Assembly: GCA_000182565.2 (NCBI GenBank)
Contig: KQ257453.1
DNA: 64,000 nt
From: Spizellomyces punctatus DAOM BR117
Lineage: Eukaryota
Reading direction: 5' to 3' (one strand)
Shown here: positions 140 through 63,288 of the stretch, piece after piece
How positions within the stretch are numbered: the stretch's first letter is position 1
How the letters are laid out: every line of letters starts with the position of its first letter
The notes under the pieces: generated by a model
Seen by the model: only the letters and a program-made list of their open reading frames with translations
Told to the model about the DNA's origin: nothing
The model's database searches: none
Made by a program: the position numbers and the translations under genes

Positions 140-590
140 CTACGACCTTGCATTTTCGATAGCCTTAAGAATGTCTTGAGCAACCTCCTCAGGCGTCCTG
201 CCATCCTCCACCTCAAATATAATCTTTGCCCATTGGGACCCATCCGCCAGATCTAGAGCAATAGCCGTCGCCTTCTTTCTAGCATAAATAAAATCCGGTT
301 TCCGGTGAAGGTGATAAAAATTGCCTATAAACAACCATGTATTAGACGCTGTATCCGGCCTCGTCAATCTCTCCAAAAAAGTAAAACCTACCAGCATAAA
401 AGACGCCCGGCACACTCGTCCCAACACGGAGCCCATTCCAGCAGACGCACAGGTCGTCTGGCCGAACACGGACGTTCGTAATGTGTTTAAGTGGGACGGA
501 CACGGGTGAGAATTGCACTGCGAGGAGTTTTTGACATGTTGTGAGGGAAAGGACAAGGTCAGTTGACGTTAATTGGAGAGTTGGGGCCAT
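140..590 (-). CDS. Small (~127 aa) two-exon protein resembling an uncharacterised, mainly actinobacterial, family
   Basis: ATG at 590. Exon 1 (590-392) reads MAPTLQLTSTDLVLSLTTCQKLLAV...VPLKHITNVRVR...GLRVGTSVPGVFYAG. A 67-nt intron (GTAGGT...TTATAG, 391-325) joins it in frame to exon 2 (324-140), GNFYHLHRKPDF...AIALDLADGSQWAKIIFEVEDGRTPEEVA. Confidence 0.7.
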
Positions 591-1129
591 GGCTTCTGAG
601 AAACGATAAACAAAACAAAAAGAAAATCGCAAAAGTGAAATGGAAAAGGTTGGGAGGGATTCCTGCGCTTGTCTTTTTGTACTCGAGGACTGATGGGTCA
701 TCAGATTTATTTCTGGAAACGCGACCCGCGCAGGTGGGGGCTTCTGCCAAGTCCACAGTAGGCAAGAACAACTTGGCAAGAGTATTCCTGGGGCAACATT
801 TCTCTTTTTAACAAACAATGGCATCTATTTCACATCCGAAATTCTCCATACACATTTCCTAATGCTTTGTTGGCAGAGAAGTTACAATATCCCATATCGT
901 ATTCTCTTTTGCCCCCAACATGTGTGTCGTCTTGAAGGAATCAAACGATTAATGGATCCCAATCCACACATATTGGCCGCATTGTGTATGACGATTCGGA
1001 TCCGCAGAAATAACTGCCAAGGCAGTAGGGTCACACGTTGGCTTCCGGGGATCCACACATGGTTATAGATGTATTTACCAACCCGCCACTGAACCGTAGT
1101 GTAGCGTAGCGTATTCCCCTCTGTTTATC

Positions 1130-2069
1130 CTAAATATGGTGAATACCCGACTTGGCTCTAAAGCGAAACAAAGCCCTAAAGACTAAAATTGTCCAATATG
1201 TGTTCAATCCAGTAAACACTACATAATTGATGCATGTCAGAATCCAGACAATGCCTGGCAGCCGCCGTAGTCGTTGCCAGAGGAGGAGTGGCCGGGCAAT
1301 GGCAACTGTGGCCTTGGCCGGAAGGGATCCTTGACCGGAACGCTCTTCCACCTTTTGCACAATGTTGTTCTCCCTCACATCCGCGTCGTTTGTTCGCTTT
1401 GTAACACGGAGAGCGTACCAGAGACCCAAGGGTCCTGCTGGCGCACGCACCAATAAAAACAATACGCATCGAACAATCAACCAAAATTCATACGCCTTGC
1501 CCGTTTCCTTGCCCAGTTTTTGCATCACCCACAAGACATTTGTCGCAACCACGGTTAGTTCGCTTGGTAAGAACACGGCTGGAAAATAGCTGGCTACTTT
1601 GTAATGCCGCATGAAACCCGCCCCCAGGGCTCCAAGAACGTGGTGAATCCAGGCAGATGGATGCTGCCTTCCCACGATCCCCATTACATAACTATCATAT
1701 AATGTGTAGCCTGTCATATTTGTTAATTTAGAATAATTTGGTGCTGAATAAGCTGGAACGAAACTTACCGATATGGGCAGCAAGAGTTCGGTCCAAGAGT
1801 TCAGGATAAGGTTCAATAACATCCTCAGAGTATGGTTGACGCTTCAATAGTAAGTATAAGGAACTAACGGAAACAGTGAGTGCGTTCACAGTCGATGGAA
1901 GCTTTTCTGCAAGGAACAAAAGATCGGCGGAATTCAGACGCGCAAGTGTTGCGGGGGATAGATAGTGTATAAGCTGAGCCGCGATTTTGTGGAGAATCAG
2001 GTGGAAACCTAGCGGAACTAGGACTTGGGCATCTGCAAATTGCTTGAGAGGAAGACTCGGGACAGGCAT
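1130..2069 (-). CDS. TLC (TRAM/LAG1/CLN8) domain membrane protein
   Basis: Two exons (intron about 1769-1712). Motifs GYTLYD, WIHH, SELTV and LNTYW, with multiple hydrophobic segments. Confidence 0.8.
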
Positions 2070-5770: not shown

Positions 5771-6676
5771 ATGATGAATACACTTACTGGAACCATCGCC
5801 GTAGAACACGGAAAACTGTTCTATACGCACACTCCCGCATATCCTGCAGTCACCCAAAGACCCCCGTTGCTACTCATCCATGCAGGTGTTGCTGATCACT
5901 CAATGTGGGAGACGACTGTGGCTCACTTTAGCCAGAGAGGACACCAAGTCATCACATATGACACTAGAGGGTACGGCCAAACCCGAAATGATACTACAGC
6001 TCCAGAAACTGCGTCATACAGTAATGTCGACGACGCGATTGCATTGCTAGATCACCTTGGAGTGAACCAAGTTGTTGTCGTCGGTAACTCTCGCGGTGGA
6101 GCGATTGCCTTAGATATCGCATTACAGTTTCCTAAACGAGTAATTGGGGTCGTCCATATTTGTGGTGGAGTGGGCGGGTTAGAAGGTCCAGAATATGATG
6201 AGACTACCAGCGGAACGGACCTTGAGAAGGAGATCTTCACCAAAATCCTTCAGGTCTACAGTGATAAGAATTGGGATGCGTTGGAGGACCTGTTTGCATC
6301 TGCTTGGGCAGATGGAGTTGGACAGCCTTTACGCAGATCAGGACATGTGCATGACCGTGTCAAGCAAATGGTCCATGCCAATTTGGCGGCTCATGAAAAG
6401 AGCGGAGAAGCACTGGCTGTTAAACCCAGACATCCGCAGCCGTCTGCAGCAGAGAGAATTGAACAATTGATGTCTCCGCTGTTGGTGATTGTTGGTGGGC
6501 TGGACACCTCTGCTACCATTAGAACTGCGGATTGGCTGGTCAGTAAAGTAGAAAAGGTTACAAGGGTGGACTTTCCGCAGTGTGCTCATATGGTTAGTTT
6601 GGAGGAGCCTGACAAGTTCCATTGCGTTGTTGAGGAATGGTTGGAAAACAATGTTGGCTGTGTCAAGGCTATATGA
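5771..6676 (+). CDS. Alpha/beta-fold hydrolase, intronless
   Basis: LLIHAG, YDTRGYG, nucleophile elbow GNSRG, catalytic Asp region VGGLD and His region CAHM. Likely start ATG at 5771. Confidence 0.9.
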   Translation: MMNTLTGTIAVEHGKLFYTHTPAYPAVTQRPPLLLIHAGVADHSMWETTVAHFSQRGHQVITYDTRGYGQTRNDTTAPETASYSNVDDAIALLDHLGVNQVVVVGNSRGGAIALDIALQFPKRVIGVVHICGGVGGLEGPEYDETTSGTDLEKEIFTKILQVYSDKNWDALEDLFASAWADGVGQPLRRSGHVHDRVKQMVHANLAAHEKSGEALAVKPRHPQPSAAERIEQLMSPLLVIVGGLDTSATIRTADWLVSKVEKVTRVDFPQCAHMVSLEEPDKFHCVVEEWLENNVGCVKAI

Positions 6677-7439
6677 AATAATCGGTTACTATGTGAATGC
6701 GAAGGACATAGACTTGGAAACAAGCACGTCATTCGTAACCCATCAACTGACATTGGGCTAGTAGCAACAGCCTTCTGTTTGTAACGACGCCTACTACGCA
6801 AGCCCATAAGCCAAAGTCAACAAATCCAATTCTGTATTCACAACCCTTTATCTTAACGAGAACGATGAAGCGAGGTACACTCGAATCTCAATGATATTGT
6901 GTTATAGCACACAATGGAAGTAGAATCCAAGTGCCTTCCGAGAGATATACAATTTCGCCACATTTCAGTAGAGGGTTGAGTAGCGCCATATTATAGGCAG
7001 TTTATGTGCCCATTAAAGAATACAAGATGAACCACATTTTGGCAGTCATTGATATGAAAAGGCGCTGACGCCCGACCAAGAGAGGCATTCACAACGTTTG
7101 CAAGATGACCTATGCAGATTTCGATATCATCATTTTACTATTACTATACATGACCATCGTCACAGGTACTTCCCCTGCACCTCCAATGCTCCATTGGAAA
7201 ATTGTTGCCACTGACCCTCCAAGTACTACAAGATACCATTGTGTGTTATGAATGATATACTCGGGCGCTAATTGCCGAGGCTTGCTGCCGACTAGATCCA
7301 GCTGCTGTTTCATCGGACGTACACAAATTTTCTAACAGACTACAAGGCAAGTCAATTCCCTAATCCCCAAAAAACCCACACTATCCTCCCCGGCAAACAA
7401 CGAAAAAGTAAACAGAAACTAACAGAAAGCAACTTGTTC

Positions 7440-8625
7440 TCACCGTCGTCTGGCGGCTGCGGCATTCTGCTGTACAAACTTTGGTATAGCGTACAGATAT
7501 ATCAGGTTTGCAGCGTTGTAAAGTAAGAGCATGACGTCCCCAAAAACCATCCCGTATATCGCTGCATCGGCCAAGGTAACTATTATAGCCAATCCAGAGA
7601 AGAGGATCATGAAAGATAACACAAAGACCATGCTATGTCCGCTAATGATCCGGTCTTGTTTCTTTTGGACAGGCTTACGCATCGACGGATCGACGGCTGA
7701 AGAGGCGCGAATATCGCGTGTGGAGGGTAAAGAGCGGACCGCCGACGAAGGTGCGCTCTCATGGAGATCTGTCGTCGATGTTCCGCCTGCACTGGATTGG
7801 AGTAACTCGGAGACCGCAGTAGGAATTGCCAAAAACAATGATTTAAATGTCCAAGGTTGACGAGCCGGTGGACTTTGTCCAACGTCTGCAGCCGTTGCCC
7901 GACTGCTAGCACCAGGATCCACTACATTTTTCCGCATCTTCAATACCAATCTCAGTGATGCAACTGCGAGGGCCCAATCAACAAGAATGTCCCACACGAG
8001 TGGAAGCCCAAGGGCACCCCATGCTGCATATTTCTCGAATTGGGTGACCCTTCCTTTTGTAAGGATGAGGGCCCATGCTACGGCGCCGTATCCCCATCCC
8101 ACGGCGGTGAAGAAGGCGGTTAGGGTGAGAAGCAGGATTCGGAGCCAGCGGGGATAGAACGTAATGTGATCGAATACGCCTGGAGGTTATCAAGGGTTTA
8201 AATAAGGGAATTGGAGAATTGGAAAGGACCAGGCAATCAGTCAGTACGTACCAAAACGGACAATATTAATGACGTTTACAATGGCACCACATGCAATCGT
8301 CGCCGTGCTAAAAAAAAAATAGAGAACATGTAATTTAGCGCCCTGCATTGCCATCAGGCAACGACGAAAAGCAAGTAACTTACTACATCAAAAAGGTCCA
8401 TATGCCTTCAAAGCATCCTACGCCCTGCCTAGTGACAACATGATCGACCACGAACCCCAGCATGCTCATCAAACTCGTAAAAATGGCAACCCATGACACT
8501 ATTAGTGCCAAGTTAAATTTCGACTTTCGGGCCATATATCGACGGACGGTGTAAGCTATTCCAACTAGCGCTAGACATGACCCAAGAGCGAGGAACGGCA
8601 CGCTGATGTGCATGACACTAGCCAA
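7440..8625 (-). CDS. Multi-pass (possibly 7-TM, GPCR-like) membrane protein
   Basis: Several exons with successive hydrophobic helices and a long polar loop before the last two TM segments. No recognised family motif. Confidence 0.55.
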
Positions 8626-9550
8626 AAGAGAACAAGGTTGACGTTAATTCTAAAAGTGTCGCCCATTGACACTTGTTTGAGGAGTCGCCTACTTTTGCGG
8701 GTATTTGGCTACGCAAATGTCGAGGTTATGAGGCAAAGAGTTGTTGTGCATGGTTGCAACAGTGAGCGAGTCTCTTTGACACCGCTATCAAGACTTTTTA
8801 TTTCGCAGCCTTGTTTAAAAAAAAGAGTAAAGTCCATAAAAACCCGAAAGTAAGCTTGCCGCACGGGCATTTTGATAACCGCTAGCTTTATGCAAGTCCG
8901 TTGTTTGTTGAGCGGATCCTCTGATTTACTAAAAACTCTTTTTTTTTCTGGGTCATGGAAAGTAATCAAAAAGATTGCTATTCATTGCGTCGTATTTCTG
9001 GACACCACCCCATTACCTATCAAAAGGATCTGCCCAAAGTGCGAGACGGGCACAAGAATCAAAACAAAAGATTGTTTATTTGAGGCACCATCAACAAACC
9101 ATTGAGAGTTCCTCAACTGGGTACTTTGTTAATTCCCCATGTCTGCCGTTTTCTAATTCCAACCGTCCATTCTTCCTTTATGAATTTACATTGTACTTGT
9201 CACCCATAACATGCTTAACCTTGTTAAACTTCCGCCGAGGTAAACAAAAGCCCTCGAGGGTTGCGTTGATTTTAACTTTAGATTTGGTTCAATCCGTCAC
9301 ATGGCCTATATTGGATTAATTGCATTTGAACGATTGCATTTAACAATTTAAGAGGGCGGAGCTAAAAACTTCACAAAGATTTCAAGCACCGCAAGAATCT
9401 TGGCACCGACAAGAAACGCATAAAGAATGCACGTTATCCTACCCTCATTACCTCATCTAAGAACAATATTTTACATTTCAAAGGCTATGCTATTCTACAA
9501 ACACATACACTCATTCCCCCACTATGTTGCAAAGACTGTATGCTGTGCTA

Positions 9551-11157
9551 CTAACGCCGTGCTCTTGATTCATATGGATGAAACCTGCGGGTAGAGTTAA
9601 GAGATTGTACTATGGAAATGCGTCCATCATGCACGAAACCAACCTGCGAGATTGGGACTTTAGAGGCACATCGTCCCTCGAGTTCCGTCTCACAGGCCAT
9701 GACAGCTCTAAACCACTATCTCTACGTTCAAATTTTGTGGCGGAGCAATCGATGGTTGACGAAATCGGAGATGAACAGGATTCACTTTCTGAAATTGGCG
9801 ACGGAGAGGAACATTGGCGGCGGCCAAGAGGCCCTGAGCAGTTCATATAGGGAAGGTTCTTTTTCGGGAGATCCAAGCCAATTCTCGTAGTCTTCCGGTT
9901 CGTCGCACAGGTTTCCCCGCAGTACCATGTTATTTCGTTAGAATCTGCCCACACTGAATCCGGAATCTTTCCATGACATTCGATGTGATACGCTGTCGAA
10001 TCGATATGAGAAACACAGCCCCATACTAGCGTGGTCAATAAATCTCACCTCGAGGACAGCCATCACATTGAACAAGAACTGTGCCGTTCGGGGAAGTTCT
10101 CTGGAAGCACACAATGCAAAAGTCTTGCAGGACAGGACGACATCGTTCACCTAACGATTCTCCTCGGAACTGAGTCAGATCGAGCCTGCTTTGCTTATCA
10201 GCATATCCATAGCCTTTGTAGTCACATCCATGTTTACTAGAGTTTGATGCGTTAGATCCCAGATCATTGGAGCCGACATTAGCATGATCCATAACCTACT
10301 TGCACAAGGTCCTCCGTCCCCAGGGACCAGGCCTGAACGCTGCAGTCTGTCCAGCTTTGGTCACTCCACAATACCGACACCAGTCAATACCCTTTTGAGT
10401 AAACTCCTCATATATAGTTGGTCTATGCGATTGGCGTACGACACAATCCTTGACAGGTTCATCATCTCCATCAATATCAATCATTTCGTCTTCTACGTCC
10501 ACCTCCAGTACTCCGTCTGATATGCTTTCGATATCATCATCCTCCCTACCCGCGATTACTGCACTCCCATCCGTAAGATCATCCAGATCCGAGTCACAAT
10601 CAAGAATCTCCAGATGTTCACTTTTACATGGAACACTCTCTGGGGGTTCGGGACTTGGCGAAAACAACACCGGATCTGACAAGTCGCCAAAAATTCGCCC
10701 GGATGTGATCGTGTCATCAACGCCGTTGTTTTCAGCGGTCAGATTAGCTTCCCTGTGATATGTATCGTATGTTAGCAGGTTGGCATTCATAACGCTGTAT
10801 CGTGGGAACTTACGCATCTGCCGCCAATCCACTGAGCAAGTTTTCACCAAGTCCAGCCTGCAGCGCCTCCTGCAGAGGATTCAGCTCAAAGGAATCGCTC
10901 CTATCAATCACGTCTGAAGGATCGATGTCAATATCCTCTGCAGCCTCTTCGACCACCGCTGCTGTGGCGTTGGGCGGAAAAAGGCACGGATTCGGCAAGC
11001 TGGATGACTTTAAAGGGCCCGCGGGTATCACTATCGCAGTGAACATGGAGTCACTGTAATGGTGGGTATATTCGTCGACCAAGGCATCCGTGTTGCTCGG
11101 CGGCTCCAAGGGAAGGAAGGGAAGTGTGTGATACGGGTGCGTTGGCATTTCCAGCAT
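9551..11157 (-). CDS. GATA-type zinc finger plus PHD finger protein
   Basis: Spliced WCRYCG...FRPGPWGRRTLCNKHG (GATA-like), followed by CIVC...LVQCDGCPRAYHIECH...WYCGETC (PHD). Putative last exon RFHPYESRARR*. Ends approximate. Confidence 0.85.
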
Positions 11158-11513
11158 ACTTGTCAATTGTCTTTTAGTCTTCTTCTTTACACACACTCGT
11201 CTGTTTTGCTTCCAAACCCTGGTAGCAAGCTGTAATTTCTTGAACGAAATTCGTTGGCAAGTTGACAGCTGAAAGGGGAGTTTCCCTTCAATCTGACACC
11301 GCGCGTGTGGCCATGGAGGTTGTGGCCATTACAAGTGTGAGGTCATTCTCTCGGGCGATGGAAATGGCCAGAGATCCAATCAAACTTTCCGGTTTCATAT
11401 CTGGATGGATTGCATGCATTCCATGGATCCAGTGTATTATAGTCACATGACATTTATGAATTCTTTTTGACGAGCGTTCAAACTACCAGTAGGTCTTGTT
11501 TGCTTTTTGCAAC

Positions 11514-14500
11514 ATGCCGTCTTCGTCCTTGTCCGCGCAGCTCAAGCAGCTGGCTGCGGCTCATGTGCCCGGTACAGGAAAGGGAAAGGCATCGCTTCTA
11601 TTTACGGCCAAACAGGCGGCAGATATAGATATCGATAGTTTATTTGTAATTGGACGAAATGCCCTCGTCGACTTGTGTACCCACAACCCGGCCTTCAAAG
11701 ACTTTGAAGAGACATTATTTTCAGAGAGAATAAAAACCTTGGATAGGACATTGCAGGTTTGCGTCTCGCCGTGTCATCAACAAACATGAAGCCCCATTTT
11801 TGACGCCGCCCCTTGTTCGATAGACAAAGGCGGACAATGAAAAGCTGGACGAAAGCATTAACAAGTTCTTGCGCCTTCTCTCGCCATATTTCCTTTTGCA
11901 AAGTACCTTCAAAGCTCTAGAGTGGCTTTTGCGGCGATTTCGGTGAGTATCCCGAACTGTGCATGATCCGTGTTCAACGAGTTCATCGACTTTCTTGTGA
12001 TATAGAATCAACGAATTCAATGTCGACGTGATCGTGGAATGTATCCTTCCTTACCATGAAACGAAGCAGTTTGTGCAGGTGGTCGGCGTACTCGCCCTAC
12101 CGTAAGTATCTGCGTCTCTGGCCCTTCGTTAAACTGGATTCTGAACGTGTCATACACAGTGAGGACTCGCGGTGGGGTTTTCTCAAGGCGATCCAAAAGA
12201 CCAAGGTGCCTCTGGACCGGGTCACATTGATCCAACGATTGACAGCTGACAGAACTGTGTTGGAGTTCATTTGTGGAATGGTATGAAGAAATATGGTTTT
12301 GGAACATTTGGAGATACGCTGACATGACTGGTTTTTAGATTATATCCTCCAAACAAGCGGGAGTGATCAATAGAACTTTATGGACTTTCTTCGCCTTGAC
12401 CGTTATTCAATATATCCAGAGTTTGACAGTAGTGTCTGATGAGGACATACGCCTGCTTCTGGCCCCACTTCTTTCCCTCTTGCGTATCGGAAATCCCCAA
12501 TACGCGGATCTCTTGGCGACAGCGCAGATGGTGTTTGCTCAGATTGCCAACCGTGCCCCCCTGAGCAACGAAGTTGTGTTAACCATTGTGGAGAATGCGG
12601 CGGCGGGTGTTACCCCCACCACTCTGCAGTCGTCGATCACCTTCCTCTTGACAATATATCGGTCCCAGGAAATCGGCGCTATACCTGCCAAAGCATTTTC
12701 TCGTTTATTGGATGTAAAGGGATTTGAGGAAACGCTGGCACAAATAAACAAGACGTACGAGGCAGATAAGCTGCTCTGCCCAATGTTCGAGGCCGCCGTT
12801 AGTGCACTCGGCAGTCCTGAAAGTGCCCAAAAACTTGCAGCAAGGGCCGAGCAATTTATCGAAGTGATCCTTGATCACGGGGAGCCATCCAGTGAAGCAC
12901 TTTCCTTCTTCGTCAATGCTATTCTCCAGTCGTATCTGGAAAACAGGGATCCCGACGAAGGTTCTGCACTGAAGCTTAAGAATATCTTGCAATCAATGCA
13001 GCGTAGGCACGGTCATGCCGTGGACCAAGTTGTAGAGGCAAAGTTAAAGGATTGCGAACAGCGCGGTGACAAGGAACAACAGCAGGCTCTCTACGACTTT
13101 GTAACATCAACATTTAGAGGAACAGGCGGCCGGGTTGTAAAGAATGCAAACACCACGTTATACCTTAGCCTCCAACACGTAAATGCCAACATTCGTTTGA
13201 TGGCACTAGAAAATTTGACGGAGATGTTGAGCAACGGTGAACAAGAAGATATCGAATTTGCGGAAGATATCCTGTTAAGCCGACTACAGGATGATGACGA
13301 CCGTGTTCTAAAACACGTACTTGAGCTGCCTCTCCTAACCGATATCGTTGAGCCTTTGAAATTGGCCCCTGCAATGCAAGCGTTGTTGCGTTCTGAAACA
13401 GTTTCATTGAAAAACAAATGCCGAGCGTTTGATATATGTGTGGAGCTATTGAAGTCCGACGAAACGCGAACCCTATCCTCTCTCAGGCACGACATATTGG
13501 GATGCTTCCTCCTCACAAGGGAATCTCGTCGACTCAACAGACACTCCTTCGCATGTGCCGCGAAACCTGGTTTCCCACTTCAGGAACTTGTTCGGAAATG
13601 CGAGAACCTAGTCTCTGACCTTGACACTTTGATCGAGTCTAAGGATGGAAAGGCTGCAAAGAGCGCTGCATTCGTCCCTGTAACAGCACGCGCAATCTCT
13701 ACCTTGGCGAATAATCTGAAGAAACCAAAGACCGCTGCAAATATTGATGCCTACGTGGAAGGCTTAGCATCGGCATCTTTCTCTACGCGCCAGTTGAGCG
13801 CATTGGTTTTGATCAAAGCTCTTCAAGCTAAAACCGCCGGAGAACAACTGCAATTGGCTGATCGAATCGTTGCCATTGTTGCGAAGCAATTGAGCACAGT
13901 CAAACGTGATAGCCAAAACGATTGTACTATTCAAGAGGAAACTGGATTGCTCAAAGATATCGTCAACGTCCGTGCGAGCAATGCTTCAAGTCATGCTGTC
14001 GAGTTCCAGGTTGTTATGTTTGTACTGAAAAGCGTAATTGACACCATTATTCGACCAAACGCTGCAACTATTGCATGGTTATCAACCGAGGATGAGCCGA
14101 GCGAAGATGCTAGCCTTTATCGACGACTGATCGTACGTCTTTATGAGACGGTATCATCTCTGAATGGAAACGCAGCCGAGGTCTTGCTGACGACTCTTCT
14201 TCGGAAGCACTTGGCAATGGACGCAGTGCAGTTTTGCACTGCGTACTGGGTGGATAACGGTAGGAACATATTCTCTCCCTACTACTCGTTAACTTAACCT
14301 CATGAACCTTCTTTAAATTGCTAGATAAACCTGTATCCTTGCAGATTAACAGCTTAACAATAGCCACCTCGTTCATCAACATCGCCGCGGATCCTGATGT
14401 TGTGCTAAAATACGATTTCCAATTGGTAATCCCTTCTTTGTTCACTGCCCTGGCCAATCCGGAAAAGGCAGTACGGAGTGCAGCTCTAGACTGTCTGCAA

Positions 14501-43512: not shown

Positions 43513-43886
43513 TGGTGCATTCTTTGGATTGTAAATTCCCTTTGTTAATCTGCTCTCCCAGGCAACTAAATCATGTAGCGTAATCGATTACTCCGTTTCC
43601 CTGTTCCGCAAAGTGTACAGCCTGGCCCCTTGGATAGGTCCCCTTGCCTGGGTTTTTGAAAAGGCACCATTTTTTTTATAAATTTTTTCTTTCTACTGTA
43701 TTCTTGCTCTTACCTGATGCGACACTTTACATGCGAATACCAAAGCATGCTGGGAATCATTCGTATCCGTGATTTTTTGATCGAAACGGCCCTGCTCTCC
43801 ATACCATCTGTGTCCAGACAGCAGCCTGTTTATTCTGTTTAAAGAAGTTGAATGGATGATACATTTCGGTTGCACATTATCAACTT

Positions 43887-43916
43887 TAGTGTAGAGGTGA
43901 CAGAAACTGGCACTAG
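43887..43916. repeat. Solo terminal inverted repeat identical to the omegaRNA-side end of the element at 60815-61561
   Basis: TAGTGTAGAGGTGACAGAAACTGGCACTAG is identical to 60815-60844 (30/30). No partner TIR seen nearby. Confidence 0.9.
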
Positions 43917-44215
43917 CAAGGCGCGTAACCGAGATAGCCTCCATAATCAACGACCGGACAAATCGTTTGGGCCCGCAAGAAATCTTGGCCTTTTCATTGC
44001 TATCGAGCTACCGTTTCAAGCGGTTTTCATTATTATTGTCCGCTGTGATGCATTTTGGGGGCAAGACTGAAGCGAAAGGGCTTTCCACAGACAAATGCAC
44101 GATCGGCGTGTTAACGTAATCAACCTTGCCCAATGGCACAGTCAAGTGTGAGCCAGAATACATGAACACCATTACCTCACTGTAGACTTTTCCGAAATCA
44201 GAGTGAATAGCAAAC

Positions 44216-59225: not shown

Positions 59226-60774
59226 CTACTCGTCACTTTTGTTTTCTCTATCTACAGCTGCTAGTCTTGACTGAGCCACCTCGATCAGAACTTCTATGTG
59301 CTCTATCTGTTCGAAAACGGACTTGAGCTCCCCCTGCGCCCCTCTCTGACGAGTCTTCAAGTCCGCTAATTCCTTTTTGCGCTCTTGCATGATTTTATGT
59401 TGTTCTTCAATTTCAGCCTAGAGGTAAAAAATAGCATTCAGACTCCATTCGAGGACTTTTGCTTGTTCTCACTAGACACATTACATTGATCTTCCTCATT
59501 TCTGGTGATTCTTTTGGTTGATATATGTCGGCCAGATCCTCACTCTCCAGCAGCGTTTGATAAAAATCTGGCTGCAAATTGTGTTTCTTTGAGTGCCCCG
59601 ACCAATTAAGATGAATCATCGCCGTGCACCTACATTGGCTTCGAATTTTGTAAGCAGCTCTTTGAAGACGTCTTCGTCTGCAGCCTTTTCATGCATCCAC
59701 TTATCTACCGACGCCCACCTATCCTTTGAGCGTAGTAGCTGCATCTGCTTGTCGCTGAATACGTCCGACGATACATTTTGAACAAAAGATCGACCTAGTG
59801 TTGTCAGAAACTTTGTTTCCTCCTCTTCGCAGGTTTTCTTCAATCTACACCAGTAGTAGTGAAATTCCGCTCCATATATCAAAAACTAGAACATACTCAG
59901 CATTTTCCTTCTCGATCATCTGTTTTCGAAAAGTAAGGTTGACCAACAGCGACCTAAGATGGTCGAATTCCTCCTCGCTTCCGTTTTCGCACATTAGCTT
60001 TTGGCACTTTGACCGGAGATAGACTTTTTCCTGTACTATATTGAGCAGTGCGGCAATGCACAAGTCATACTCGCGCTGAAAAATGGGTGCGACTCATGAG
60101 AAGGTACTTTGGGTCCTTGAAGCAGTGAGAATATCCACCTTGATGTCCGCCAGAATTGGCCTATAGTTGCGAAATTGCGCAATAACCCGATCATAGATTT
60201 GCTGGAGGCATTCAATCCTATACGGATCTAGCAAGTTGCTTTCGAACCTGCGCAGGGTTTGTAGGTCATCCTGATACTTTGCTACTAGTAGGTCAGGTTG
60301 TTGGGGACATCTTTCCACAGTTGGGTCGGAAGCCAGCCACGCTTTCAGATGATATGGCAGAGAACGGAGATGAAAGCATGGTTGGGTATCATTGCGCACG
60401 GAAAAGTGTGTTGCACCATTCAAGGTCATGATACTACTAGTGATGGAAATACGCAGATGGATCGGAGATTTTCTTATTGTGCACACCAATATTGCTCAAT
60501 TCACGCATATATAAATAAACCACCATTTTCTACTGACATGGCCAAGATCTAATCATGATATTGGCGGATTCATCTGGCAAGATGTCACTTTCTTTGCGTC
60601 CAAGCCATTCCACAATGGGCTATAGCAAAAGTTCTGCAGGACCATACGGGTGAACTCTCTCACCACACCGGACGTGTCATTACATAAATATCATCTGCAC
60701 GAGCACATCATGTAGCTCCGTATCTCGCATGGGTACCAGGAATACCTTTGGCAAAAAAGGTCATTGGTGGTCAT
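59226..60774 (-). CDS. TSNAXIP1 N-terminal-domain-like coiled-coil protein
   Basis: RIECLQQIYDRVIAQFRNYRPILADIKREYD resembles the TSNAXIP1_N motif. Multiple exons. Putative ATG at 60774; ends approximate. Confidence 0.6.
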
Positions 60775-60799
60775 CGTTCAAGTGTAAAGCCCTCCAGGC

Positions 60800-60887
60800 G
60801 GAAGTGACAAAAGTTAGTGTAGAGGTGACAGAAACTGGCACTAGCTACTACACCAGGGAATAAACCGGCGACAACCGGTTTGGAAAA
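60800..60887 (-). ncRNA. Putative Fanzor omegaRNA: scaffold 60887-60815 plus ~15-nt guide 60814-60800
   Basis: Minus strand reads TTTTCC-AAACCGG-TTGTCG-CCGGTTT-ATTCC-CTGG-TGTAG-TAGCTAGTG-CCAG-TTTCTGTCACCT-CTACACTA, then guide ACTTTTGTCACTTCC. It has a perfect 7-bp hairpin, a GTGTAG/CTACAC stem and a possible CTGG/CCAG pseudoknot. Resembles the SpuFz1 omegaRNA as I recall it. Confidence 0.8.
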
Positions 60888-61561
60888 GCTAACTAAGCTA
60901 CTACTAGGCAATTATACACGCAATACGTAACGGTTGGTTCTAACCGGATAATTGCCCACCACCACAGGCGGTCCCTACTAGGCCTTGATCTGGAACTCTT
61001 GATGGCATTGAAGCCAGACTCTTGCATCCAGGAGCGAATCGACTGGGCAGCGTCACAAGCCAGAGGATGTTCAGTGACAAGGCTTGGAGACTAAAACTGC
61101 ATGTCAGCGACAGAATAATATGAAAAGAGATGATGCCATTGGTACATACCAACCAAGCTCAACTAATGTGGCAGCATAATAGTAGGTTTTGTTATCAGAT
61201 CTGATTGGTTGCCGCTGGTTCTGATCACGGTTGCTGTCGGGCGGTCGAGGTCCTCGGCACCAGAGCAGTATTCTCATGATTGGACTGAGACTTGTTGGGC
61301 GGATGCTTTGAGTCGAGGATGGGTAAAGAGGAAAGAGGGAAGAGGGAGCAGGTCCCCCTTTTATAGACCTTTGGCATGCGCCTCACCGCAGTTTAAAAAA
61401 AAAGCTACATTAGCATGCCACACCGCAGTTTGGAGAACATTAGCATCCATGCCTCCTCACCGCTTTGAGCAATGATGGGGGTTCTGATTATGCGATATGA
61501 CTAACCGGATTAATCCGGATAATAATGGGTCCTAGTGCCATTTTCAATCACCTCCACACTA
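60815..61561 (-). mobile_element. Non-autonomous TIR element, Fanzor 'ghost'-type (Spu-1-like), with no nuclease ORF
   Basis: 28-bp imperfect TIRs (60817-60844 and 61532-61559, 24/28 match). TA on both sides (60815-16, 61560-61). CATA on the minus strand at 61563-61560. OmegaRNA-like structure at the other end. Confidence 0.88.
61359..61365 (-). promoter_or_regulatory. TATA box inside the TIR element
   Basis: TATAAAA on the minus strand, followed by a pyrimidine-rich tract and an ATG at 61277, oriented toward the omegaRNA end. Confidence 0.5.
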
Positions 61562-61890
61562 TGGACATCACGTCACTGGCACAGTCACACTACAATACAT
61601 GACTATGCCGTCATTACACTCAAACCGGAATATGAGAAAGATTTGAACCGTGCAGATTTGCACGAGGGGCTGACGTCTTCACACCTTCAAATATCGAACC
61701 CCCGCTCTCGCCCCCCCATCTTTTCCCATCATCTTTTGCTCATCGCAAGCAGTACGTTGCAATCTTTTGCGCACTCCAACATTATCAGTGTTTTTTAAAG
61801 GTATGGAAGCGCGTGTGTCCTTGGGATTTTATTCTGGTTTGTTGTTGGAGACTCTGCTAACACGGTGTTTAGAATCTATCCTCATCTAGT

Positions 61891-62448
61891 ATGGCTAACC
61901 AAAGCAAACCTCAAGCTGCCGGCGGTATCTCCGCCTTGGTCCAATCGGCTAGCGGCCGTGTGCTTCCCCTTATCAGCACTGCTCAGTCCTATGCCATTGC
62001 TACCCTCTCAACATCCAAGGCCATCCTCGACCGGTACCCCCCGCTCAAGGTTTGTGTGCCGTAGTGGTCCTTGTTTTGTTAAGTCACTTGGACTGATCAA
62101 TTCCCCGTGAAATTCTGCCAGGCCTTTGTGTACACTCTTGGTGGTGCCGCCGCTGTACCTCTCGCTGTCTTCACAGGTTACGGTGCTGCCACTGGCGCTG
62201 TCGTCCTCGGTGTCGCCGGAACCGCTGTAACCTTTGTACAAGGCGGTTTCCTCGCATTTGGAGGATTCATTCTCTTCTGGTTCTTGGCAGGAGCTTTCGT
62301 TCTCGCCTCGATCTTGACTTTCTGGTAAGGGTCGGCAATAAGTTACATGACATTCTACGAGAGCTTATCGTGCTCCCTTTCCTTTTATAGGTTCACATTG
62401 GCCTACTTCGCCTTCCAAGTCGCCAAACGCCTTGAGGGCACTGCTTAA
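61891..62448 (+). CDS. Promethin/LDAF1-like lipid-droplet membrane protein
   Basis: Long uninterrupted Gly/Ala-rich hydrophobic stretch AVPLAVFTGYGAATGAVVLGVAGTAVTFVQGGFLAFGGFILFWFL. Multi-exon, stop at 62446-62448. Confidence 0.65.
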
Positions 62449-63288
62449 GCAGCTTTAAACCTGCGGTTCGATTTTGGTTTTCCCTCATTTTTGCGTTTAG
62501 TTTTAGCTTAGAAACGGGCCTCATAATTTGATACCTGGATTACAGTGTTTGGATTGCTTTAATGTGTATGGGGGGCATGGGTTGCAATATTATATTACTC
62601 TGTTGAACCGCCGTCCTTGCAGCAAGTCTTTTGCCTTGAGATGTCCTATGATCCGCATATGCGGTTCACCTACTGATATTATTTGATGCCTTGGCAGAGT
62701 GAACACAATTGTTTTACAAGGTCACTGAAAGTTGTCTTGCTCGACGACAGCACGTTCTGCATCAAAAATTATCGAATCAGCGTGTTGGGACACAGCTCGC
62801 AATGTACGTGTTCGATACAGGGGTTTGATTGGTGGTACCTTATAACAAGTGTTATCCCACGTATCAGAGTTGGAAGTTAAATCCAGGTGGGCGTAAACGC
62901 CATTGGAGACATAAAAAACGGTGGAGTGCAACTTAGAACTGGCTGGTCCGTAACTGAGACTGGGATAATGCGGGGGTTGAATCTATGATATGCTTTTGTG
63001 GCGGTGGTCTAAGTCGCTGACTAGCCGCGCAAGAATACTCTATAAAATAATGGGCGAACAGACACCAGCTCCTCGGTGCCGACCCAGGTCTAAACTATTA
63101 ACATCTACCCTTAGCTCTCGTATACGAACGCATAGCAGCAGCTTGAATTGGGTAAGAGCCAACTTTTGCGGGCTAGTAATAATGGGCACCCTGTACACAA
63201 CTGGGAAGATCCGGCGAGAAGTGCGCAAACGGAACACAATGCTGCCTGCTGGCATAAAGGACTCATCCTCTGCATACGCGGCTATATA

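Follow-up and report, generated by a model that had tools for sequence, protein, structure and literature searches.

The 64,000-nucleotide (nt) stretch of contig KQ257453.1 of the soil fungus Spizellomyces punctatus DAOM BR117 analyzed here, which we call the window, contains a 747-bp element on its minus strand (61561-60815). This element is a ghost Spu-1, a nuclease-less relative of the Fanzor1 transposon Spu-1. Its interior holds a transcription unit laid out like that of a messenger RNA (mRNA): a TATA box, a leader, an ATG, a short exon 1, a 59-nt GT-AG intron, exon 2 and, about 50 nt after a stop codon, the scaffold of the ghost omegaRNA. As a transcription unit it is well supported at the level of the ghost family. 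We consider it somewhat probable that the interior is a spliced host transcript, probably made by RNA polymerase II (Pol II), that serves to express the omegaRNA; we infer the processing of this transcript into the omegaRNA. A first-pass annotation of the window, made from the letters alone, had proposed a spliced unit inside the ghost that is oriented towards the omegaRNA and reads into it, and both RNA reads and NCBI mRNA models agree with this proposal, including the reading through the scaffold.

Ghost Spu-1 loci have been described by Saito et al. (2023, Nature, PMC10432273). The 134 loci reported have 30-nt inverted repeats (IRs), the dinucleotide CA ahead of the left IR, a conserved stretch of about 550 nt and no Fanzor open reading frame (ORF). 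The element in the window has the same organization. Its 30-nt IR arms, 60815-60844 and 61532-61561, are 87% complementary and agree in sequence with those of the printed ghost copies, both edges of the element have TA, and the left end comprises the CA at 61563-61562 and the 5' IR at 61561-61532. No Fanzor ORF lies between the repeats, and the longest stop-to-stop frames inside the element are 72-102 amino acids (aa). The ghost scaffold is defined as 75 nt spanning the right IR, followed by a guide of 14-15 nt taken from the flank (PMC10432273). By this definition the scaffold occupies 60889-60815 on the minus strand, includes the 3' IR (60844-60815) and is followed by the guide position at 60814-60800. 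The scaffold region is near-identical to that of the printed ghost loci, and ghost scaffolds function with the SpuFz1 nuclease in human cells (PMC10432273). At the left end, CA followed by TA (61561-61560) gives CATA, which is the target-adjacent motif (TAM) of SpuFz1, 5'-CATA (PMC10432273). Joining both flanks would therefore recreate a TAM with the guide target.

The ghost RNA is abundant and strand-specific. Reads from four runs were mapped on 59700-62500: X13, raw RNA reads labelled as the same species; X1 and X2, both root metatranscriptome runs; and X7, which is DNA-like. The element is multi-copy: the word depth in X7 rises from 3.8-3.9 in the flanks to 68-496 within the element. Of the 26,394,413 records read from X13, 136,767 fall on this 2.8-kb stretch, nearly all of them inside the element and with the first mate on the minus strand, which suggests that ghost RNA makes up about 0.5% of the reads in this one RNA library. 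The plus-strand neighbouring gene yields reads with the first mate on plus and has a GT..AG joint at 62323/62390. The first mate therefore reports the sense strand, and the ghost RNA is minus-sense. The strand bias is 99%, and depth in the element is thousands-fold above that in the flanks. In the direction of transcription, the minus-sense depth in X13 is 43 at 61298-61391, 2,538 at 61204-61297, 1,100 at 61110-61203 and 9,463 at 61016-61109; it is highest at 60922-61015 (30,274), then 18,800 at 60828-60921 and 664 at 60734-60827, and it stays under 3 beyond, in the flanks. Most reads differ from the window copy (11,598 of 12,072 at 60881 and 23,835 of 24,368 at 60967), which makes sister copies the main source of the signal. 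Allele counts were considered as a gauge of the window copy's own expression and rejected, the distinguishing letters being common to other copies, such as that at place 21 of the file of ghost loci introduced below.

Two other patches of RNA stand apart from this profile. A plus-sense patch surrounds the TATA box at 61298-61391 (depth 128, against 43 minus-sense), and a separate minus-sense patch lies over the left IR region at 61486-61579 (depth 196, against 12.5 in the next bin). They may reflect divergent promoter transcription or small RNAs.

Splicing is seen directly in the reads. A joint at 61090/61150 skips 59 nt that begin and end as CT..AC on the plus strand, that is, GT..AG on the minus strand. 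It is carried by 930 minus-sense and 5 plus-sense reads with 21 start places and also by one X1 contig, and an X2 contig breaks off at 61091 in loose letters identical to the final 13 nt of exon 1 in reverse complement. The splicing event is thus supported by three RNA runs, X13 from one study and X1 and X2 from another. The joined form has a depth of 0 in the DNA-like run X7 and is therefore not a retrocopy. Depth inside the intron (61140) is 3, as opposed to 2,057 at 61172, a ratio that holds for the short-intron copies only, because unspliced reads from long-intron copies would not align here. The intron extends from 61149 to 61091 on the minus strand, with a GTATGT donor, a CTGAC branch site at 61107-61103 and a TTTTAG acceptor whose AG is at 61092-61091.

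The first-pass annotation had anticipated much of this. The signals that it named on the minus strand, TATAAAA (61365-61359), a pyrimidine-rich tract, the ATG at 61277, GTATGT at 61149, CTGAC at 61107-61103 and CAG at 61099-61097, are all where it placed them. Its intron was 53 nt long, from GTATGT at 61149 to the CAG at 61097, and it called for junction reads at 61150/61096. The donor side was right, with the 930 minus-sense reads leaving at 61150, but the acceptor was not: the reads join at 61090, and no joint at 61096/61150 is present among the 15 joints listed, out of 25. The acceptor used lies 6 nt further along than the predicted CAG, which leaves frame and stop unaltered; the spliced ORF is 92 aa long, 2 aa fewer than the 94 aa that had been proposed.

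Public gene models place the same unit in other ghost copies. Supplementary file 7 of PMC10432273 is a GenBank file of ghost loci with NCBI features. In the record of SPPG_09412, the coding sequence (CDS) is join(813..943,1003..1114), the intron is 59 nt, and the IRs are at 485..513 and 1246..1275. In that of SPPG_08830, the mRNA is join(480..762,831..1413), the CDS is join(632..762,831..1017), the intron is 68 nt, and the IRs are at 364..393 and 1077..1106. The SPPG_08830 mRNA has its start 87 nt inward of the left IR and extends 307 nt beyond the right IR, and this one annotated mRNA covers both the upstream exons and the scaffold. When the exon 2 translation of the window copy was searched against 5.8 billion proteins, the one match was SPPG_09412 of Spizellomyces punctatus. 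A further annotated mRNA, that of the exportin CRM1 (SPPG_07821; first record of file 7), begins at the ghost ATG and uses the ghost intron. Apparently, a ghost insertion supplies the promoter and first exons to this essential host gene.

The signals of the unit are conserved among ghost copies. We compared copies by eye as printed text, using places 1, 3, 5-11, 13-31 and 71-80 of 135 and leaving aside place 2, for which no sequence is given, place 4, which repeats place 3, and place 12, whose informative part is unprinted; these 38 copies and the window copy make 39. TATAAAA is exact in 32 of the 38 copies judged, the exceptions being TATAGAA, TACAAAA, TGTAAAA, one TATATAAA and two 5' deletions. 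The ATG is kept in 38 of 39 copies, with one 5' deletion. A GT donor is found at the same place in all 39 copies, as GTATGT in 36 of them, and AG directly precedes exon 2 in all 39; the predicted upstream CAG is missing in 7 of the first 29. Subfamilies differ in the sequence of the intron interior and in its length (59 to about 72 nt). Exon 1 is 125, 128 or 131 nt long, all phase 2, in copies with an intact frame. The first-pass annotation had asked for conservation of both splice sites and reading frame across copies, and the copies bear out the former but not the latter, as only 20 of 39 reach the same stop. A second, diverged ghost lineage, which we call type B (places 78-80, and place 10 of file 6), shares the TATA-ATG-intron layout, but its exon content and right IR differ and its 3' region is longer. 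In file 6, the type B copy is contained in a record that is classed as a Fanzor locus.

The layout of the window copy can be followed from the TATA box to the scaffold. The TATAAAA box at 61365-61359 is the presumed core promoter, judging from its sequence and the comparison of copies, and is followed by the pyrimidine-rich tract. Minus-sense depth is 7-12 at 61339-61374 and 114-149 at 61301-61309, a step below the TATA box that is read over a leader unlike that of the expressed copies. The 5' leader would extend approximately from 61335 to 61278, as judged from this depth step and a start 25-55 nt below the TATA box. This leader is shorter than most; most copies hold one to three tandem repeats of about 22 nt there, and the close relatives with a short leader are places 29 and 30. 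Loose ends show that 3,133 reads continue past 61280 with a different leader. The ATG at 61277-61275 is the first after the TATA box, with no other ATG between, and has an A at -3. The coding part of exon 1 (61277-61150) is 128 nt and ends in phase 2 at the joint, and the exon 2 part of the ORF runs from 61090 to the stop TAG at 60942-60940. Since the scaffold starts at 60889, the ORF does end about 50 nt before it, as the first-pass annotation had stated. The stretch between stop and scaffold (60939-60890), which holds a TATAAT at 60916-60911, is kept in the copies compared. Splicing and the conserved TATA box together fit a Pol II transcript.

Transcription continues through the scaffold into the flank. 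Minus-sense depth inside the scaffold is 6,458-13,196 at 60835-60881. One X2 contig reaches from the spliced end of exon 1 to 60904, and one X1 contig reaches from 61060 to 60815 and on into 18 nt of another copy's flank. Coverage and overlapping contigs are thus unbroken up to and through the scaffold, with reads of at most 60 nt that come from many copies. The unique flanks report on the window copy itself. Minus-sense depth is 2.7-2.95 in the three bins of 60452-60733, compared with 0-0.57 in the three bins of 61580-61861 on the other side. Minus-strand transcription therefore starts inside the element and passes the right IR. This read-through is of low level and covers about 360 nt (60799-60452).

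These observations suggest a route by which a ghost may express its omegaRNA. The mRNA-like unit would be transcribed by the host, probably by Pol II, and then spliced. Transcription would cross the right IR into the flank and copy the locus-specific guide into RNA; as the guide lies in the flank, run-off past the right IR is the only route by which it could be copied. The omegaRNA of 75+15 nt would be cut and trimmed from the 3' part of the transcript, probably once a Fanzor protein supplied in trans has bound. Ghosts, having no Fanzor mRNA to ride on, would in this way express the omegaRNA via a host transcript of their own. The arrangement would mirror that of the canonical locus, in which the scaffold also comes after a stop codon.

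Several observations weigh against this explanation. Sister copies supply most of the reads, and the window copy is informative mainly by its read-through. As many as 8,371 minus-sense reads leave the window copy at 60898, before the scaffold, and their loose ends of about 11-13 letters have no counterpart in any of the 38 ghost copies compared; scaffold-less loci may therefore account for part of the abundance. In the annotation, the SPPG_08830 mRNA begins about 45 nt upstream of the TATA box, and there may therefore be a start signal besides this box. The conserved TATAAT lies 22-27 nt before the scaffold and could start the omegaRNA independently. The read-through extends at least 360 nt, and the 3' end of the guide must therefore come from trimming. 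No RNA end is enriched at the 5' edge of the scaffold, in an ordinary complementary DNA (cDNA) library that would lose a 90-nt RNA. The 3' 291 nt fold no better than shuffled sequences (z -1.38), and Rfam returned nothing meaningful, either for the whole window at the gathering threshold or for 60600-61800 at E up to 10. Copies were counted by eye, in 38 of about 134 loci.

Some of these points also bear on a different explanation, which we hold to be possible but rather unlikely: that the unit is merely a mobile promoter and leader, carried or picked up by the element, that drives read-through into neighbouring DNA, with the omegaRNA made separately, for example from the TATAAT upstream of the scaffold. 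The CRM1 mRNA, annotated from the ghost ATG through the ghost intron, speaks for this, and the transcripts that run 307 nt past the IR in SPPG_08830 and about 360 nt into the flank of the window copy are in line with it. The conservation of TATAAT in the copies compared and the 8,371 reads that diverge before the scaffold also count in its favour. However, the coverage from exon 2 into the scaffold is unbroken at a depth of 6,000-13,000 and does not rise at the scaffold start. The canonical Spu-1 omegaRNA likewise lies just after the stop codon in the 3' part of an mRNA, a layout that the ghost copies. Moreover, no conserved T-run follows the guide, because the flanks differ between copies. 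On balance, we prefer expression of the omegaRNA through the spliced transcript.

A second alternative concerns the 92-aa ORF, which the first-pass annotation had offered as an unrecognized cargo microprotein. The ORF could be a functional small protein, for example a regulator of Fanzor or of silencing. This is distinctly unlikely on the present evidence; most likely, the ORF is a by-product or a generic feature of an mRNA and not a conserved protein. The case for a protein is not empty. The ORF starts at the first AUG of the transcript with an A at -3. When the 457-nt spliced transcript is randomized, an ATG-initiated ORF of at least 92 aa arises in only about 2% of cases (106 of 5000 by mononucleotide shuffling, 97 of 5000 under a first-order Markov model). 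Among the younger-looking copies, 19 of 29 reach the same stop, and there are hints of selection for openness, namely in-frame indels of +3 and -12, a codon-sized difference of 3 nt, and pairs of compensating shifts at places 1, 18 and 31. The first 14 or so codons (MR..W.CRGPRPPD) are kept even in type B ghosts. Against this, only 1 of the 10 older copies at places 71-80 keeps the ORF, and among all 39 copies it is broken within exon 1 in 8, and 11 have a different end or frame. Three frames are used for exon 2: frame 0 in the window copy, 0 and then 1 in SPPG_09412 (P0001) and 2 in SPPG_08830 (P0002), with a frame-2 subfamily of at least 5 members (places 10, 11, 25, 26 and 76). In type B ghosts, the ORFs are 41-73 aa or broken, and the frame used over the conserved block ahead of the scaffold is a different one. 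A rough count by eye over the first 19 copies gave about 30 replacement and 14 silent differences, which is near neutral.

Database and structure searches point the same way. Protein searches found no relatives outside the ghost family, only ghost-derived models such as P0004. Two of the five HMMER matches with P0001 were animal immunoglobulin-repeat proteins (P0003 and P0005), which were rejected as spurious, being matched in 6 short stretches. For two minus-strand frames, of 72 and 92 aa, Pfam gave nothing above the cut-off, and the best hit of a PDB sequence search with P0002 had an E-value of 0.032 and was unrelated. An AlphaFold2 model of the ORF from the single sequence has a mean pLDDT (predicted local distance difference test score) of 51, with no residue at 70 or above. 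The lack of indels over the ORF in the table of reads was considered as a sign of frame conservation and rejected, as 11,366 clipped reads at 60933 were excluded from that table; these reads represent a variant with small indels just before the stop.

The 10-mer ATCCGGTTAG occurs exactly twice in the window. Both sites are in the ghost and in the same orientation, at 61510-61501 and 60949-60940 on the minus strand. One lies just inside the left IR and the other holds the stop of the ORF, and they are possibly subterminal binding sites. With the stop codon inside a repeated motif, the stop may be conserved for non-coding reasons, which could alone explain its conservation.

A third alternative, that chance motifs in a dead repeat are covered by background reads or DNA contamination, could draw on the difference between the window copy and the main expressed copies and on its own read-through of only about 3-fold depth, but the 99% strand bias, the depth thousands-fold above the flanks, the 930 spliced reads with no joined form in the DNA-like run, and the independent annotated mRNAs on other copies make it extremely improbable.

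The origin of the unit was also considered. Descent of the ghost interior from a Fanzor locus by deletion was rejected for the promoter side. The 5' regions of two Fanzor loci (file 6, places 1 and 9) show no likeness to that of the ghost, whose promoter is therefore a different one; the ghost also has an intron. A more far-reaching idea, which we put forward only tentatively and think rather doubtful, is that ghosts, instead of being passive products of deletion, are a separate lineage of mobile, self-expressing guide-RNA genes, in which the intron and an open frame free of sequence requirements are selected for making the transcript resemble a host mRNA. The transcript would thereby escape surveillance and silencing and could build up to about 0.5% of all reads. 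Each insertion would then bring a strong spliced Pol II unit that makes a new locus-specific guide for Fanzor. In a bolder version, the short N-terminal peptide that is kept in type B ghosts might have a function of its own.

The surroundings of the element can be described briefly. It occupies a 1.46-kb gap that separates two diverging genes, a minus-strand gene starting near 60430 and a plus-strand gene with its ATG at 61891. The latter (61891-62500) encodes a small membrane-like protein with a weak, sub-threshold match to Promethin (E 0.0022) and has a 66-nt GT-AG intron (62324-62389) that is confirmed by RNA reads. Elsewhere in the window, the element is represented only by a solitary 32-nt stretch at 43886-43917, downstream of an eIF5A-like gene. 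It is 100% identical to the right terminus of the ghost (60814-60845), has no further ghost sequence adjoining, and may be a footprint or a cropped insertion. A tRNA scan found none. Exact-pattern scans of metagenome contigs with a 25-mer of the scaffold and a 24-mer of exon 2 found 0 loci each.

The element and its omegaRNA are already published, and the inner transcription unit is visible in public gene models and undescribed in the searchable literature. The published ghost Spu-1 has the same 30-nt IRs, CA, lack of a Fanzor ORF, conserved interior and 75-nt scaffold at the right end, and in the main text of PMC10432273 the interior of about 550 nt is treated solely as a "conserved region". 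The word "intron" occurs 0 times in that main text, and "promoter" occurs 4 times, for U6 and vector promoters only, with both of the 2 passages listed concerning U6; the main text does not describe the TATA box, the intron, the ORF or an abundant host transcript of ghosts. Small RNA sequencing is reported there for the Fz (nuclease-bearing) loci only, and U6 promoters were used for all tests. A search of literature listings and abstracts returned nothing on native transcription of ghost loci.

Canonical Spu-1 was described with 33-bp terminal inverted repeats and putative TA duplications (Bao and Jurka 2013, PMC3627910). The ghost resembles the canonical Spu-1/SpuFz1 locus in being a terminal-inverted-repeat element with putative TA duplications and in having an omegaRNA that follows a stop codon, spans the right IR and takes its guide from the flank. 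It differs in what lies upstream, which in the canonical element is a single-exon nuclease gene of 633-638 aa.

Comparable arrangements exist elsewhere. In bacteria, nuclease-less derivatives of IS200/IS605 elements keep the guide-RNA end and borrow the nuclease in trans, and omegaRNA is made from the 3' part of a longer transcript by processing of the TnpB mRNA. The bacterial IS200/IS605 examples are not known to have introns or a eukaryotic promoter. By analogy, the ghosts would resemble these derivatives as non-autonomous elements with a guide-RNA end, and would differ from them by the intron and the eukaryotic promoter. Host genes of small nucleolar RNAs and microRNAs produce spliced, mRNA-like and often poorly coding Pol II transcripts from which a small RNA is cut out. 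In ghosts, by contrast, the small RNA is in the last exon or 3' part rather than in an intron, and the host gene is borne by a transposon of about 100 copies.

How eukaryotic Fanzor guide RNAs are made in their native host is poorly described. The genome of Spizellomyces punctatus has 134 ghost loci and 42 Fanzor genes (PMC10432273). If every ghost holds a strong spliced unit that ends in a scaffold, most of the guide repertoire of the cell may be ghost-derived. For an element described as a relic, the roughly 0.5% of reads suggested by the one RNA library is a large share. If our explanation is true, the natural guide precursor would be a Pol II transcript, which bears on the expression of Fanzor guides from Pol II promoters in eukaryotic cells. 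Ghosts would, in addition, be mobile promoters from which neighbouring genes acquire new 5' ends, as in the annotated CRM1 mRNA.

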